This document shows positions 14,621 through 60,552 of a DNA stretch of 64,000 nucleotides, in pieces. Made by a program: the position numbers and the translations under genes. The stretch's first letter is position 1; every line of letters begins with the position of its first letter. Origin of the DNA: a phage. Under the pieces are notes generated by a model. The model saw only the letters and a list, made by a program, of their open reading frames with translations, did no database searches and had not been told where the DNA came from. Where the stretch lies: sequence record PZ445134.1; one strand, 5' to 3'.

Positions 14621-15040
14621 TTATGCAAAAGACGCTGGACAATATTTTTTGATTTGGAACTCAGGAACTACCATGAACTGACCAGCGAAAACGATGTTAT
14701 AAAGCTTAACACCATCTTCTACCCAACGGTCGCTAATAAATCCGGCGATTTGCTTAGTTTTCCATGGAGACCCATCAGTTGCAGCAGCAATAGTAAATTC
14801 ATGGTCTTTTACAACTAAAACTGATCTGCATAGTCCCCATTTGAACGCTTTTTCTTCTGGTTCAATGAATTGGCTTTTAACATAACCAATATTACCATCG
14901 GCGTCACGAACTTTAACTTCGTTACGTCCAAAAACCGGATCACTCACAGAAAGAACTTCAACCAACTTCCCGGCAACTTTAGAGCGAGAAGCAACAGATA
15001 CATATACGTAATCACCTGTAGAGAGATTTACAATATTCAT
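14621..15040 (-). CDS. hypothetical protein, tandem paralog A (139 aa)
   Basis: shares SRSK(A/V)AG(R/K)LVEV and GFISD(Q/R)WVEDG.KLYNIVF.G.F.VV blocks with the adjacent gene. Confidence 0.55.
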   Translation of the reverse strand: MNIVNLSTGDYVYVSVASRSKVAGKLVEVLSVSDPVFGRNEVKVRDADGNIGYVKSQFIEPEEKAFKWGLCRSVLVVKDHEFTIAAATDGSPWKTKQIAGFISDRWVEDGVKLYNIVFAGQFMVVPEFQIKKYCPASFA

Positions 15041-15049
15041 AATAATTCC

Positions 15050-15505
15050 TTAAGCTTTACGAGGAGACACATAGCGAGTGATTTCAGATTCTTTAACAAC
15101 TCGGAAGTCACCTAAGAATACGATATTGTATAACTTTTCACCATCTTCAACCCATTGGTCACTAATGAAGCCACACATAGTATCAGTTTTGCTTGGATAA
15201 CCATATTCGTCGATGAAGTCAAATTCTTTATCAGTCTGGAATTCAACACCTTTACACAAGGCCCATTTGAACTGTACATTAGGCTCATTGGAAGCAGAAT
15301 GAGCGCTCACAGGATTTTCCAAGAATTTAGGACTTACATAAGCGAACTGAACATCTTTTTGCCCAAAGTTATAAATGATTCGAACTTTAACTTCTTTAAT
15401 GCGTCCCATGCCATTTGTGCGAAGTCCCACCACTTCAACCAATCGTCCTGCAGCTTTAGAACGAGATACAGGCGATACATACTTAATTTCACCAATAGTA
15501 ATCAT
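15050..15505 (-). CDS. hypothetical protein, tandem paralog B (151 aa)
   Basis: see paralog A; RBS AGAGAGAGA; promoter cassette upstream. Confidence 0.55.
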   Translation of the reverse strand: MITIGEIKYVSPVSRSKAAGRLVEVVGLRTNGMGRIKEVKVRIIYNFGQKDVQFAYVSPKFLENPVSAHSASNEPNVQFKWALCKGVEFQTDKEFDFIDEYGYPSKTDTMCGFISDQWVEDGEKLYNIVFLGDFRVVKESEITRYVSPRKA

Positions 15506-15534: not shown

Positions 15535-15564
15535 ATTATACTCCAACCATCCTTGGTTGTAAAC
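15535..15564 (-). promoter_or_regulatory. early-type promoter cassette (GTTTAC ... CCAAGGATGGTTGG ... TATAAT)
   Basis: minus strand GTTTACAACCAAGGATGGTTGGAGTATAAT; same cassette recurs at 57599 and 58592. Confidence 0.5.
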
Positions 15565-55909: not shown

Positions 55910-56315
55910 TATTTTTCCTTTCATCAATTAAATATGCAATGCCAAATACAATACATGTAATAAAACCTGTGATACAGATAGAAACCAACAACACTGTACC
56001 AAAGAACCAAATCAAGTTATCTTTAGTAGTTTGTTTGATATCCATCTCACGAATTTCTATAGCTATCGTATCACCTTTATTAAGAAGCGTATAAAACGAT
56101 GGTGATACATGCCTGTCAAAAACTCGACCTTGTTCATCTTTATAAACTGCAATAAATTCCAGTTTAGAATATTTTCCTGTAGATTGACCTGAAATTAATT
56201 CCACTACCTCCACAGGAATTACTTTAGTTTCCATGTAAGTATTCTGGCTGTTCCAAATGAATGGAATGATGGCAAAAACTAAAGCTGTAATAAAACAACG
56301 AAGGCTATATCTCAT
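55902..56315 (-). CDS. membrane protein (137 aa)
   Basis: ORF track; N- and C-terminal hydrophobic segments. Confidence 0.45.
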   Translation of the reverse strand: MRYSLRCFITALVFAIIPFIWNSQNTYMETKVIPVEVVELISGQSTGKYSKLEFIAVYKDEQGRVFDRHVSPSFYTLLNKGDTIAIEIREMDIKQTTKDNLIWFFGTVLLVSICITGFITCIVFGIAYLIDERKNNV

Positions 56316-56620
56316 TATAATGTTCTCTCAAATTTGTGGAAGCATTTACGGCATTTCAATTTCAAGTTATCAGTGGTCCAGTTAACCAGTTGGACTTGGA
56401 TAGTTCCACATTCCGGACATGGATGTTTTGCTGCCGATTTGGCAGCATTTTCACGTCGTTCAACCATTTTCATTATTTCGTTCCATGCCGGAGGAACGAA
56501 CTCTTCTTCACCGTGGATTTTATCTCGCTGAACAAATTCAATCTTTGAACTATCGTCGATAAACTTAACCAAGCTGTGATTAGTGCTCATGTCAATATCC
56601 TCTAAAAGACGTAGTTTCAT
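56315..56620 (-). CDS. zinc-ribbon protein (101 aa)
   Basis: CPECG ... CRKC four-Cys arrangement. Confidence 0.45.
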   Translation of the reverse strand: MKLRLLEDIDMSTNHSLVKFIDDSSKIEFVQRDKIHGEEEFVPPAWNEIMKMVERRENAAKSAAKHPCPECGTIQVQLVNWTTDNLKLKCRKCFHKFERTL

Positions 56621-57570
56621 TATAAAACCTCAATGGCATTTCGTAAACCATCCGCTTTCGCATTCAGAGCTTTTAACGATTTAGTTTTTTCTGCAATCTG
56701 GGCTTCGACTTCTTTCAGTCGAGATTTGAGATATTCGCGTTCTTCTCTTAAATTATCAACTTTTTCTACTTTAGGTTCTTTAATAGGCTTAGGTTTATAC
56801 GTATTAGGGTTCTTCAGTTTAATTAGAATGTGTGAACTGTACAGCATTGAACCATTATCTTCGGTTTCGTCATACATTTCCACTACGTCCATCATCTCCA
56901 CCATCGTGCAGAGTTTATAAGACAACGAACGAATAGTTTTGTTGTGCTTATTAATTTCTTTAGAGTTCATGGTGCCTAGATTACGCGAGTAGTAATAAGG
57001 AACCTGGATATCAATTGTCAATGATGCGTTACCATTACCAGTTGGTTTGAATACTGCAGTAACCCAATCTTTAACATGAACTTTATTTGTACGACCATCG
57101 CCACCTGTGAATAATTTACGAGAATGTTTAAAAAGCATATTCACTTGGTTATTGAATTCACAAGCAAATTTATCAGCAAATTTAGTTTCAGGAATGGTAG
57201 ATAACCAATCAGCCAAGTAGGTCTTTTTAACATCGTTAACAATAGTAAATTCAACCAAATCGGTTATAGATGTCGCAGTTTTAATGAAGCTCGGCTTCAT
57301 AAAGTTTTTAATGTTATCGCGAGCTATAGTAGAAGATAATAAACGAGAACGTTTGAACCATTGAAGCAGTGTCCCTAATGAATGAGAATACGCATTCTGA
57401 GTATCTTTACAGATATGATTTTCTTGGCCTGTGTATGTACCAAAATCGCGAAGAATACCGCTTACTACAACTCGGTGTGGAACATCAAATCCTAATGAAC
57501 CAGAAGCACGTTGGGCATGAACGTTAGCGATAAGACCTGCAAAATAATCAACGTAATGTGAACGTGTCAT
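56620..57570 (-). CDS. hypothetical protein with C-terminal coiled coil (316 aa)
   Basis: ORF track; heptad-like C-terminus; promoter cassette upstream. Confidence 0.5.
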   Translation of the reverse strand: MTRSHYVDYFAGLIANVHAQRASGSLGFDVPHRVVVSGILRDFGTYTGQENHICKDTQNAYSHSLGTLLQWFKRSRLLSSTIARDNIKNFMKPSFIKTATSITDLVEFTIVNDVKKTYLADWLSTIPETKFADKFACEFNNQVNMLFKHSRKLFTGGDGRTNKVHVKDWVTAVFKPTGNGNASLTIDIQVPYYYSRNLGTMNSKEINKHNKTIRSLSYKLCTMVEMMDVVEMYDETEDNGSMLYSSHILIKLKNPNTYKPKPIKEPKVEKVDNLREEREYLKSRLKEVEAQIAEKTKSLKALNAKADGLRNAIEVL

Positions 57571-57598
57571 AATATTTTCCTCTCGTTAAGATAGATTC

Positions 57599-57628
57599 AT
57601 TATACTCCAACCGTCCTTGGTTGTAAAC
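57599..57628 (-). promoter_or_regulatory. early-type promoter cassette (GTTTAC...CCAAGGACGGTTGG...TATAAT)
   Basis: near-identical to cassette at 15535 and 58592. Confidence 0.5.
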
Positions 57629-57632
57629 TGAT

Positions 57633-58565
57633 TTATGATTTTAATGCATTCATTGCGTTAAAAAGTTTAGAGTACTGCAACTGGAGCTTGGTAACTACTT
57701 GTTGAGCATCACGAAGCTTAGCTTGTGCTTTGTCAAGTTCAACAGACAGTTGGTCCACAGTGGCTTTGATTTGATTATAATAGTAATCTTCGGCAGGAAG
57801 AAGACCGTTAGAGATTTCCAGTTTAGTCGACGGTGTGCCGTTAAACATAACAGGTTGTGCTGAAGCTGCATTAATCTTACCGATAGTCGGGGCGACAATA
57901 ATTGACGCTTCGAACGTTGCATTTTCCTTTTTAAGATTTTTATAATATTCAGAGTCTTTGTGCCACCATGGCGCAGGAACCTTTTTACCAATAGATACAC
58001 GAGCCTGGATAGCGATATGGCCCTTATTCTTGATAACGTCGATAATATTAAGCTCACGAGAATAAATTGCTTTAATCTGGTGAATATTATCACCTAACAC
58101 TTCCAACGCTTGGTGGAATACACGAGCAACGTTATCATTCTTAGGTTTATACGTAAGAGTGAACTCATTCTCACTGATAACCATGATTTCTAACTTATCG
58201 TAAGTATATTTCAAATGTTTCATGTTAATTGCTTGAGGACGAATACGAGAAGCAATGGCCATCAAATTGTTAAGGTTATTCCGGAACTGCTTAGCGAAAT
58301 ATTGTCCTTCACCGCCAATACAAAAATTACGAAGTTTCTGTTTGGCTAATAAACGGCTGAACTCACCATTTTTAATGAACTCTTTAACAGGTGTGTTAGT
58401 AACGCATTCAAATTGAGTAAACTTACGAGAAGTAATCCCATAATATGAACAGATTTCCTCAATCTCTTCAGGGGTCTTTACAGGCATACGGATAGGATTA
58501 GGTCCTGGAGTATATGCGTTCGAGGTAAATTCTTTGATAAGTTCTCTACGTGTAATAAAAGCCAT
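57633..58565 (-). CDS. hypothetical protein with C-terminal coiled coil (310 aa)
   Basis: ORF track; promoter cassette upstream. Confidence 0.5.
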   Translation of the reverse strand: MAFITRRELIKEFTSNAYTPGPNPIRMPVKTPEEIEEICSYYGITSRKFTQFECVTNTPVKEFIKNGEFSRLLAKQKLRNFCIGGEGQYFAKQFRNNLNNLMAIASRIRPQAINMKHLKYTYDKLEIMVISENEFTLTYKPKNDNVARVFHQALEVLGDNIHQIKAIYSRELNIIDVIKNKGHIAIQARVSIGKKVPAPWWHKDSEYYKNLKKENATFEASIIVAPTIGKINAASAQPVMFNGTPSTKLEISNGLLPAEDYYYNQIKATVDQLSVELDKAQAKLRDAQQVVTKLQLQYSKLFNAMNALKS

Positions 58566-58591
58566 TTTATATTCCTCGTGTTGAAAAATTT

Positions 58592-58621
58592 ATTATACTC
58601 CAACCATCCTTGGTTGTACAT
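58592..58621 (-). promoter_or_regulatory. early-type promoter cassette (variant -35 TGTACA)
   Basis: minus strand GTACAACCAAGGATGGTTGGAGTATAAT. Confidence 0.45.
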
Positions 58622-59616
58622 CATTCCTTAAGAAGTTTTACTACTTGAATAAGATTAGCTCGTTCTGTTTTATTTTTACCATTTAAGCCTGCTAATCGTG
58701 AGATTTCATCGTCAGTCTGTTGAATAGTTACATTAAGTTCGTTAATCAAAGCTTCAAAGTATTTGATTTGCTCAGCATGTTTTGATTCAAATTTCTGAAC
58801 CGGAATAACGTCTTGGTTCAGTTCATCAATAAGGACTTTAAGAGCATCTTCTTGGTTGATATCGTATTCAATTTCTTTTATTTCTTCAACGAGCTCGTCT
58901 TTATATCTAACGTCTTTTAGTCCTGGTGCTGGTCCTGAAATCTCTTCTTTAAGAGTGCAAACATATCCAATACGGTATCCAATGCCGTCTCGCTTGATAT
59001 CAACTTCGTCAATAAATCCACAATGTTTAAGACCAGAGCCGATTATGTCAAAATATCCTTGACGTCGTCCTTCAAACGTTACACGAACTACTAAGACAGT
59101 TTTACCACCGACCTTTTGAAGCTCACATTTATAAAAGTTTGTTGAACCTGAATAACGTGGATGAGTTTTAAAGTTCATCTGACGATCTAGGCCCATTTGT
59201 AAGCGTGCTGATACGGCCATAAAACGTGTTTGGTTCTCGTTAAGATGAGCAACAATCCATTTCAAAGGCATTTTACACTGTTCACGACCGAACAAATCAG
59301 TACGTCCTAGATTACGCAGGATGTTGTTAGAGTTAATCATCGACAGAACGTTAAGTTTATTCAGCGCGCTGAAGATTCCATCGGCCATTGATTTTCCGTA
59401 ACCTTTACACGCTTTAATAAGCGCTCGCGGTAGATTAGTATAGATTTCAGACGGCATATGAAAATCAAATTTACTAGTCAGTAATTGATGAACTTGGATA
59501 GCAATTTGCTCATAATTAAGTGCTCTGCGATCATTATGATCTTTAAACCACACTTTAATCTGTGAAGCACATAAACCGTTAATTTCATGTTTTACCGCAT
59601 CAGATGTAATGCTCAT
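58621..59616 (-). CDS. hypothetical protein with C-terminal coiled coil (331 aa)
   Basis: ORF track; promoter cassette upstream. Confidence 0.5.
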   Translation of the reverse strand: MSITSDAVKHEINGLCASQIKVWFKDHNDRRALNYEQIAIQVHQLLTSKFDFHMPSEIYTNLPRALIKACKGYGKSMADGIFSALNKLNVLSMINSNNILRNLGRTDLFGREQCKMPLKWIVAHLNENQTRFMAVSARLQMGLDRQMNFKTHPRYSGSTNFYKCELQKVGGKTVLVVRVTFEGRRQGYFDIIGSGLKHCGFIDEVDIKRDGIGYRIGYVCTLKEEISGPAPGLKDVRYKDELVEEIKEIEYDINQEDALKVLIDELNQDVIPVQKFESKHAEQIKYFEALINELNVTIQQTDDEISRLAGLNGKNKTERANLIQVVKLLKE

Positions 59617-59651
59617 ATCTATTTCCTCAGATTGAATTGGAACTCAAAACC

Positions 59652-59675
59652 ATTATAACCCGTCCTTGGGTAAAG
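59652..59675 (-). promoter_or_regulatory. early-type promoter cassette variant (CTTTAC...CCCAAGGACGGGT...TATAAT)
   Basis: same architecture as 57599 with substitutions on both arms of the spacer palindrome. Confidence 0.45.
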
Positions 59676-59678
59676 CGT

Positions 59679-60206
59679 TTATGCGTGAACCGTCTTTAAA
59701 CGTTCTTCAAATTTCCGAAGAGTACTAATACGTTCTGCTTTCTGTTTTGTATAGTTTGCAATACGTTCTGAAGTGAGAGCGTATCGTTCATTTACTGTTT
59801 CTTTCATGAAGTCAGGGATTTCACGAGAAGCTTTAATTTCATCAAACTTATCGAGTACTGCCTGGTCTTCAGCGATTAAATTTTCGTACATCTCGATATC
59901 TTTCTTGATAAACTCGATATCTTCCTGGGTTACTTTGGATAAACGAGATGCTTTATCCTTTTTGTACTGCTCGTTAGTTTCACGAGACCAGAATAATGTA
60001 CGTTTTTTGTTAGTGTTTTTGTAGACTTCCACAATTCCAACTGAATCGATGATAGCAATCCAATTCCAGCGAGATTTGAAAATCTGACCTCCATCCACGG
60101 TAATCTCGTTACCATAAGCAACGTCATTAAAGAACTTGCTTTGTGCTTCAGATTTAAATTTACCGTCGTTATAATTTACCAGGTTGAAAATATCTTTAGC
60201 GTTCAT
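59679..60206 (-). CDS. hypothetical protein (175 aa)
   Basis: ORF track; promoter cassette at ~60215-60260. Confidence 0.5.
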   Translation of the reverse strand: MNAKDIFNLVNYNDGKFKSEAQSKFFNDVAYGNEITVDGGQIFKSRWNWIAIIDSVGIVEVYKNTNKKRTLFWSRETNEQYKKDKASRLSKVTQEDIEFIKKDIEMYENLIAEDQAVLDKFDEIKASREIPDFMKETVNERYALTSERIANYTKQKAERISTLRKFEERLKTVHA

Positions 60207-60264
60207 GTTTTACCTCCAGTAGTTGATAGGTCTATAATAACATAACCATAGACCTTGTAAACAA

Positions 60265-60552
60265 CTAAAAGAAACTTTTTTCGGTATTTTTTCCACTGAA
60301 CCAAACCGATTTCGGAATTTTCTGTAATTTTTCAGATTTAAGTTTCTCTTCCTGTTCTTTCTTATATGCATCCTTGTCGTACTGGAACAACTCTAAGGCA
60401 TTCTTTTGTAGACGGTCTAAGGTAATTAAGGCTTTAGTTTTTCCTTTCAAGGAAGAGTCCTGGCGAACCTCCTCGCTATATTGCATCGTAGAACTAACCA
60501 TACGATGAGCATACAGTTCGACTGCGGCTTTAATTTTTTGCATAAAATCCAT
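60265..60552 (-). CDS. hypothetical basic protein (95 aa)
   Basis: ORF track; overlapping alternative ORF 60447..60653 not resolved. Confidence 0.35.
   Translation of the reverse strand: MDFMQKIKAAVELYAHRMVSSTMQYSEEVRQDSSLKGKTKALITLDRLQKNALELFQYDKDAYKKEQEEKLKSEKLQKIPKSVWFSGKNTEKSFF

Follow-up and report, generated by a model that had tools for sequence, protein, structure and literature searches.

A 64,000-nucleotide stretch of phage DNA (sequence record PZ445134.1; hereafter the window) carries on its minus strand three consecutive genes of 316, 310 and 331 amino acids (aa), here called w316, w310 and w331. An initial annotation had presented these as an array of coiled-coil genes, each behind its own copy of one promoter cassette. 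We show that w331, w310 and w316 are the orthologs, by sequence and by position, of nrdC.6, nrdC.5 and nrdC.3 of phage T4, and that the cassette matches an already published module, the promoter-early stem-loop (PeSL). The finding is real but largely known, since the genes are annotated T-even genes and the module has been described. In our assessment the region is probably the Mosigvirus form of the hyperplastic nrdC.3–nrdC.6 segment of T4, that is, three non-essential early genes carried in portable cassettes whose products are probably directed against host defence.

A megablast search with window positions 56300–60300 returned 636 phage records, with Escherichia phage vB_EcoM-RPN187 (Straboviridae, Tevenvirinae, Mosigvirus) at the top, 98.8% identical over the whole query. 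The window is that of a Mosigvirus, an RB69-like T-even phage, and every gene in this part of it lies on the minus strand. The three open reading frames (ORFs) of the array agree with annotated coding sequences in vB_EcoM-RPN187 and RB69, which bears out the initial gene calls. RB69, the type Mosigvirus, shares the gene order and is annotated nrdC.10, nrdC.9, nrdC.8, nrdC.6, nrdC.5, nrdC.3, nrdC.2, nrdC.7 and nrdC. At the same locus T4 has the order nrdC.8,.7,.6,.5,.4,.3,.2,.1 and nrdC. Compared with T4, nrdC.4 and nrdC.1 are missing from the window phage, and its gene for an nrdC.7-like membrane protein is relocated so as to adjoin nrdC.

The three proteins sit in three distinct families. w316 is 57% identical to T4 NrdC.3 (BLASTP, E 7e-120) and gives a full-length match to the hidden Markov model (HMM) of phrog_1435 (residues 1–316, E 8.4e-104), a family that also contains T4 NrdC.3 and NrdC.4; PF26897 (Phage_T4_Y04OP) is precomputed on 33 of 33 w316 homologs. 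w310 is 24% identical to T4 NrdC.5 by BLASTP (E 4e-10) and matches Pfam DUF7235 (PF23882) with 372.4 bits, the curated gathering score being 30 bits (E 2.7e-111, residues 15–309, profile positions 1–307); T4 NrdC.5 matches the same family at E 5e-126, and w310 also matches phrog_2351 (E 1e-89). For w331, identity to T4 NrdC.6 is 29–33% (BLASTP E 2e-18), the phrog_2257 HMM is matched over the full length (residues 1–331, E 4.2e-126), and PF26899 (Phage_T4_Y05B) is precomputed on its homologs. The array proteins, 24–57% identical to T4, have diverged far more than their surroundings, where BLASTP identities to T4 are 92% for NrdC, 83% for NrdC.8 and 77% for NrdC.10. No enzymatic or DNA-binding domain was detected in them by Pfam, PHROGs or PDB sequence searches; the PDB searches with the array families were empty, and there is no solved structure among the relatives.

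The common regulatory module that had been proposed for the three genes is real and is the published PeSL cassette. PeSLs were described from the hyperplastic regions of T4-type phages as modules lying between genes, with a stem-loop most commonly between the -35 and -10 elements, and recombination between these modules was proposed to shuffle the ORFans that they flank (Arbiol et al. 2010, PMC2839356). They were later extended to the T4/PST pair, with the promoter consensus TTTACW-N17-TAYWAT, and degraded copies were reported in this same part of the genome (Comeau et al. 2014, PMC4122927). In the window, the 23-mer ACCAAGGAYGGTTGGAGTATAAT occurs in three copies compared with none in 100 shuffles, and the 10-mer core CCAAGGAYGG in four copies compared with 0.05 expected. 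The PeSLs before w316 and w310 are well formed and near-identical, with about 30–34 nucleotides (nt) in common. The w316 promoter fits 11 of the 12 consensus positions, and its spacer contains the hairpin CAACC-AAGGAC-GGTTG (57623–57608); the corresponding hairpin of the w310 PeSL is CAACCA-AGGA-TGGTTG (58616–58601). The copy before w331, however, is degenerate: it retains only the CCAAGGACGG hairpin core and TATAAT, has 12 nt between CTTTAC and the -10 element, and received no call in the promoter scan. The same truncated form stands ahead of nrdC.7 in T4. The consensus spacing is present in the w316 and w310 copies and in a fourth, perfect copy far outside the array, and is absent from the w331 copy.

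The DNA similarity between the window and T4 breaks exactly at two of these modules. It spans nrdC.10, nrdC.9 and nrdC.8, ends at 59648 inside the w331 PeSL, is absent over w331 and w310, and restarts at 57627, the -35 element of the w316 PeSL. The nrdC.6–nrdC.5 block behaves in this comparison as a replaceable unit with PeSL borders. When the window was compared with a more distant locus (L005), the two intact PeSLs stood out as isolated islands of 51–67 nt with 78–79% identity, the w310 PeSL accounting for the 51-nt island. That the breakpoints coincide with PeSLs supports the 'linker' role of these modules.

The array lies inside an island rich in anti-defence genes. When T4 nrdC.5 is expressed, MG1655 cells that carry dsr1 can again be infected (Srikant, Guegler and Laub 2022, eLife, PMC9391042). 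According to the HIDEN-SEQ preprint (bioRxiv 10.1101/2025.11.20.689424), nrdC.1 inhibits Septu, bas37_0203 inhibits Druantia III, and none of T4 nrdC.3 to nrdC.8 is essential in the laboratory host. The preprint's gene table gives bas37_0203 as a 528-bp gene in the nrdC.8 position, and the nrdC.8 ortholog of the window corresponds to it because both position and size agree. T6 Gp49.2, encoded a few genes downstream, inhibits OLD (PMC13096335, 2026). The initial suggestion of host-takeover or anti-defence factors accordingly has published backing for one family, that of T4 nrdC.5 acting against Dsr1, and draws further support from the anti-defence neighbours.

Taken together, we propose that each cassette consists of a PeSL, a Shine-Dalgarno sequence and an ORF, the PeSL acting as a sigma-70 early promoter with a short stem-loop in its spacer. 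Host RNA polymerase would fire the two intact promoters immediately after infection. No terminator-like site was found by the scan on the minus strand of the array, so that w331 (nrdC.6) would probably be transcribed by read-through from the nrdC.8 promoter. The array proteins may then inhibit host anti-phage systems stoichiometrically or serve as decoys for them, in keeping with the T4 member of the w310 family, which neutralises the SIR2 NADase defence Dsr1. By analogy, w310 is probably a Dsr1-class inhibitor and is the best-supported candidate of the three; its target or allele specificity may differ from that of T4 NrdC.5 because its middle region is unrelated in sequence. The coordinates of all features are collected in Table 1.

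Table 1. Array genes, promoter elements, protein segments and the upstream neighbour, in positions of the window
Feature	Position	Strand	Details and basis
w316 = nrdC.3, RB69-type allele, 316 aa	56620..57570	-	ORF; RB69 annotation nrdC.3
w310 = nrdC.5, RB69-type allele, 310 aa	57633..58565	-	ORF; RB69 annotation nrdC.5
w331 = nrdC.6, RB69-type allele, 331 aa	58621..59616	-	ORF; RB69 annotation nrdC.6
PeSL before w316	57599..57627	-	-35 TTTACA 57627-57622, -10 TATAAT 57604-57599, 17-nt spacer
PeSL before w310	58592..58620	-	-35 TGTACA, 17-nt spacer, -10 TATAAT
Degenerate PeSL before w331	59652..59675	-	CTTTAC, hairpin core ACCC-AAGGAC-GGGT, TATAAT
Fourth, perfect PeSL copy	15535..15563	-	outside the array, 42 kb away; before dexA.1-like gene
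C-terminal heptad/helical segment of w316, aa 267-316	56623..56772	-	heptad score; AlphaFold2
C-terminal heptad/helical segment of w310, aa 258-310	57636..57794	-	heptad score; conserved with T4 NrdC.5
C-terminal helical segment of w331, aa 281-331	58624..58776	-	heptad score; AlphaFold2
Variable segment of w310, aa ~217-252	~57810-57917	-	Mosigvirus alignment
Variable segment of w331, aa ~225-262	~58831-58944	-	Mosigvirus alignment; lowest-confidence part of the model
nrdC.8 ortholog, 175 aa	59679..60206	-	83% identical to T4; directly upstream of the array
Early promoter of the nrdC.8 ortholog	60234-60261	-	promoter scan

Several observations weigh against an anti-defence role carried in functional PeSL cassettes. 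The third cassette does not look functional as a promoter. The spacer hairpins are weak (-6.2 to -6.9 kcal/mol, z near 0), fold no better than shuffles and lack a U-tract. The experimental evidence stems from T4-type alleles and none of it from RB69-type ones, and w310 shares 24% identity with the tested T4 protein, about 100 central residues being unalignable. The available text of the HIDEN-SEQ preprint (10.1101/2025.11.20.689424) reports no conditional phenotype for NrdC.3 or NrdC.6. The structure models of w316 and w331 are of low confidence (pLDDT, the predicted local distance difference test, of 55 and 49), which makes any description of their domains tentative. Alternatively, the three genes could be early genes with no relationship to one another that serve host takeover or the phage's own physiology instead of counteracting immunity, for example by acting on host transcription, on nucleotide metabolism or on the membrane, and that merely share a standard type of T-even early promoter. 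The same PeSL stands ahead of an unrelated dexA.1-like gene and other repeated promoter classes are spread across the window, so that promoter sharing says little about function; moreover, functional data exist for one of the three families, and the array is located among nucleotide-metabolism genes such as nrdC and nrdD. We nevertheless consider this alternative rather unlikely: all three genes are non-essential in T4 on the laboratory host, the target of the sole family member tested is a defence system, the neighbourhood of about 8 kb includes four published anti-defence factors, and the domain searches revealed neither enzymatic nor DNA-binding domains. Another view is that the genes are selfish or near-neutral ORFan cargo kept moving by PeSL recombination and without an important function here. 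Such a view would account for the confinement of the families to T-even phages (a merged three-family profile found 12 proteins at E <=1e-3 among 1.84 billion cluster representatives), for natural deletion and fusion variants such as an nrdC.5::nrdC.3 fusion without nrdC.4, and for the absence of nrdC.4 from the window phage itself. It is, however, very unlikely given the intact, full-length ORFs in about 650–740 sequenced genomes, the high within-genus conservation outside the linker (most w310 columns are invariant across 19 sequences) and the demonstrated phenotype of T4 nrdC.5.

A further alternative concerns where the genes came from, not what they do, and it could hold alongside the anti-defence reading. 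One ancestral gene could have given rise, as very old tandem paralogs, to T4 nrdC.4 and all three array genes, whose products would then share a fold: a helical N-terminal region would be followed by a long helix, a beta-hairpin/helix/beta-hairpin domain and a linker, with a coiled coil at the C-terminus. For NrdC.3 and NrdC.4 themselves paralogy is demonstrable: they have phrog_1435 and PF26897 in common, and an NrdC.4-like protein of locus L005 matches w316 at E 1e-9. Across families the signal is far weaker. Pairwise BLASTP among the three window proteins gave nothing (best E 0.17), family HMMs run against the other window proteins scored within shuffle noise, and both PHROGs and Pfam keep the three families apart. 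Profile comparison by hhalign returned NrdC.3/4 versus NrdC.5 at E 5.8e-4 (probability 29%), the alignment being collinear, and NrdC.3/4 versus NrdC.6 at E 0.002 (probability 14%). When the C-terminal helices were cut off to avoid heptad-driven matches and 100 column shuffles served as the null, NrdC.3/4 versus NrdC.5 scored 35.2 against a shuffle maximum of 19.7 and NrdC.5 versus NrdC.6 a marginal 22.0 against 20.9, whereas NrdC.3/4 versus NrdC.6 was not significant (14.8, a value reached or exceeded by 32 of 100 shuffles). Against a second null of 157 unrelated real ORFs (mean 14.2, standard deviation 2.5, maximum 21.9), the NrdC.3/4 profile reached 30–31 (z about 6.7) with T4-type NrdC.5 and 23.0 (z about 3.5) with w310, again collinearly. 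For the NrdC.5 and NrdC.6 profiles the best foreign matches were likewise the other array families, although only at or just above the maximum of the unrelated ORFs, and the cross-family matches always run through the same region, about residues 60–150. In addition, the independently predicted orders of secondary structure in w316 and w331 coincide with the profile alignment element by element, and the proteins resemble one another in length and in their C-terminal endings. Weighing these points, we regard a remote relationship between NrdC.3/4 and NrdC.5 as somewhat probable on the profile evidence, the inclusion of NrdC.6 as tentative, and common descent of all the genes as possible but leaning towards doubtful. 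The initial annotation had left open whether the genes were divergent paralogs or unrelated; the window proteins by themselves give no pairwise signal, but the remote NrdC.3/4–NrdC.5 profile link lends some support to the former for two of the families, NrdC.6 being marginal. The comparisons that it had suggested leave hhalign probabilities of 14–29% and models of w316 and w331 too poor to decide.

An apparently much stronger link had come up in early hhalign and hmmsearch runs, in which the N-terminus of NrdC.3/4 matched residues 151–272 of T4 NrdC.5 in a non-collinear fashion (35–42 bits, E 2.7e-20). We rejected this match as an artefact: the reciprocal search was empty, and the signal was gone once a single chimeric protein, P0033, had been removed from the alignment. 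The first 129 residues of P0033 are 94% identical to residues 146–272 of T4 NrdC.5 and the remainder is NrdC.3; the hhalign values given above were obtained without it. P0033 is a natural nrdC.5::nrdC.3 fusion with nrdC.4 deleted (L132:4001-4900 and L133:2362-3261). Contigs of at least two samples carry it, one of these contigs being 167 kb long, with the crossover at the 8-nt microhomology AAGTGAAT, and the upstream part of nrdC.5 persists at the fusion loci as a separate ORF of 115 aa. A further observation concerns phrog_26858 (337 positions). Its match to T4 NrdC.4 is weak (E 2.4e-4) and nearly full-length, and three NrdC.5-type proteins match it through their C-terminal helix (E 8e-5 to 3e-4); this family could be a bridge between the others or another chimera.

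A more far-reaching version of these ideas, which we consider unlikely on balance, is that NrdC.3/NrdC.4, NrdC.5 and NrdC.6 might form one unrecognised superfamily of T-even early proteins, built on a common scaffold that combines a conserved helical region at about residues 60–150, an alpha/beta domain and, at the C-terminus, an oligomerising helix. Divergence, or exchange by PeSL recombination, would have turned each genomic slot against a different host defence system, Dsr1 being the first known target, and the constant AAGGAY loop of the cassette would serve as a recognition element for shuffling or RNA processing.

The C-terminal helices that gave rise to the coiled-coil prediction were assessed with a home-made heptad score, using the 95th percentile of 200 shuffles as the threshold. 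In the array proteins the threshold was exceeded at the C-termini (267–316 in w316, 258–310 in w310 and 281–310 in w331), a weaker additional segment being present at 203–231 of w316. The segment of w310 scored 11.0 compared with a threshold of 9.5, that of w331 was borderline (10.0 compared with 9.75) and is interrupted at GLNGKN, and both the AAA protein NrdC.10 and the membrane protein NrdC.7 stayed below threshold. Each array protein is predicted to end in a proline-free, heptad-patterned helix. AlphaFold2, run for w316 and w331 on family-only alignments (that of w316 included the chimeric P0033 as one of 30 rows), placed a single helix at 275–315 of w316 with pLDDT >80, and helices at 273–293, 302–311 and 316–330 of w331 with low confidence. 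C-terminal helices with heptad character are thus supported, and they may form oligomeric coiled coils.

Overall, the models reached a pLDDT of 55.3 and a predicted template modelling score (pTM) of 0.42 for w316, and 49.0 and 0.33 for w331. The order of elements is the same in both: a long helix leads into a beta-hairpin, to which w316 adds one strand, and a second helix and beta-hairpin follow before the disordered linker and the C-terminal helix. Foldseek searches of BFVD with these two low-confidence models returned each protein's own family as the only significant matches, a result that speaks against the paralog origin, along with weak matches to similar-sized proteins of other T4-like phages; against the PDB nothing was found at E <=1e-3, the faint tail-terminator-like matches being uninterpretable from such a model. 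The layout suggested by the models would be helical at the N-terminus and alpha/beta in the middle, followed by a flexible and variable linker and a C-terminal oligomerising helix.

Relatives of the array proteins were detected by tblastn in 654 phage records for NrdC.3, 166 for w310 and 742 for w331, and the three families are confined to T-even phages. The identity classes largely track phage genus, the w-type alleles being present in about 130–160 genomes and the T4-type alleles in about 500–590. Rapid diversification within populations was therefore rejected, as the allele classes are mostly genus-bound. The notion of a window-specific diversifying array was likewise not supported: each gene is the ortholog of a T4 gene in the corresponding position (nrdC.3, nrdC.5 or nrdC.6), the allele classes follow the genus, and one of the promoters is degenerate. 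All three are conserved in T4, but a known function is available for only one of them. In Mosigvirus alignments, nearly all of the variation and all of the indels fall in the segment directly before the C-terminal helix (Table 1, variable segments). Either relaxed constraint on a disordered linker or a role as a specificity loop could account for this pattern.

The inverted repeat in the promoter spacer (a stem of 5–6 bp, CAACC-AAGGAY-GGTTG) is real. Around the constant loop AAGGAY, six arm variants were found in the window and related loci: CAACC/GGTTG, CATCC/GGATG, ACCC/GGGT, TATACC/GGTATA, CCAC/GTGG and AGCC/GGCT. Covariation was measured on a set obtained by scanning IMG/VR for CCAAGGAYGG-N0-8-TATAAT, from which 24 distinct sequences with a -35-like motif, many of them interrelated, were kept. 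The unconstrained outer pairs gave a covariation score of 0.377 compared with 0.146 +/- 0.035 in shuffles, none of 500 being as high, and controls with a slid register gave at most 0.185. A constant loop with covarying arms hints at a hairpin that is recognised. Reading the hairpin as an intrinsic terminator is supported neither by folding energy nor by sequence context, and the terminator role published for the PeSLs of RB49 is doubtful here because the hairpin is weak and no U-tract follows. Separately, five IMG/VR loci (L013, L035, L079, L080 and L130) have promoter-like sites with the CCAAGGATGG spacer core and other outer arms (AGC/GCT, TCG/CGA, TAA/TTA and TAT/ATA), all of them complementary; some of these sites have a canonical TTGACA -35 element and one is located on a 363-kb contig.

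The occurrence of promoter cassettes in repeated copies is a general trait of this genome, and the array does not stand out in this respect. The suggestion that the cassette is a feature of the array, or specific to coiled-coil genes, had to be abandoned, since the perfect fourth copy lies elsewhere and precedes an unrelated dexA.1-like gene. This copy stands before the adjacent minus-strand ORFs 15050–15505 and 14621–15040 (151 and 139 aa), downstream of dexA. By eye, both ORFs contain the motifs SRSKxAGxLVEV and ISDxWVEDGxKLYNIVF and look like a genuine tandem pair of paralogs. Another repeated class of early promoter, TTTACAAACTCTTGAGAGCAGAGTATAATGCTCTCA, is present in two copies with inverted repeats of its own (48767 and 4626, minus strand), and a further class carries TATTATAGACCTATCAA after the -10 element (62027, 61749, 60273, 26978, 14048, 2250 and 1929, minus strand).

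As for the neighbouring genes, the nrdC.8 ortholog is helical, with a borderline heptad segment at aa 146–173. The nrdC.2 ortholog (101 aa, 56315–56620, minus strand) contains the zinc-ribbon-like pair of cysteine motifs CPEC...CRKC, and the overlap between its ATG and the w316 stop codon (TAATG) points to translational coupling. In many deposited genomes all seven genes of the segment are labelled 'thioredoxin', and one GenBank entry labels an NrdC.6 relative 'inhibitor of host transcription'. A Pfam scan found no thioredoxin domain in these proteins, so that these labels look like spill-over from the gene name nrdC.

Our analysis places three 'hypothetical' and often mis-annotated genes of RB69-like, therapeutic-type coliphages in a framework of PeSL cassettes within an anti-defence-rich island. 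RB69-type NrdC.5 would represent a natural specificity variant with a different middle domain, and NrdC.3 and NrdC.6 would be further candidates. The leads that emerge are the collinear cross-family signal, the constant-loop hairpin, the breakpoints at PeSLs and the natural nrdC.5::nrdC.3 fusion. If the weak cross-family signal is real, one scaffold may underlie several counter-defence specificities, and this would help to predict the host range of T-even phages.

Compared with the published PeSLs, the cassettes of the window run in the same order from the stop codon upstream, through a sigma-70-like promoter with its stem-loop between the -35 and -10 elements, to a Shine-Dalgarno sequence and a start codon. 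Like them, they also recur in hyperplastic regions, border on ORFans and lie at replacement breakpoints. The copy before w331 looks like the PeSLs that Comeau et al. (2014; PMC4122927) call 'degraded'. The stems of the window differ from the published ones in being short (5–6 bp) and weak, without a G/C tract or a U-run. Furthermore, the stem-loops in PMC4122927 are drawn upstream of the promoter and have the form AGNA-loop-TCNT, whereas in the window the AAGGAY loop is constant and the arms covary, a detail that we did not find in PMC2839356 or PMC4122927.

At the protein level, w316 and w331 resemble T4 NrdC.3 and NrdC.6 in family membership by HMM and in genomic position. w310 shares with T4 NrdC.5 the slot between nrdC.6 and nrdC.3/4, the status of an early gene behind an early promoter, an alignable N-terminal part (w310 residues 59–145) and the C-terminal helix; it differs in a central region (about 150–250) that cannot be aligned and in being 30 residues shorter. 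DSAD1, the SPbeta-phage inhibitor of DSR2, comes from another phage group and has another target (PMC10973363, PMC11263360), and it is comparable to w310 only by functional analogy: in both cases, if w310 acts as proposed, a phage protein would block a SIR2-domain NADase defence.

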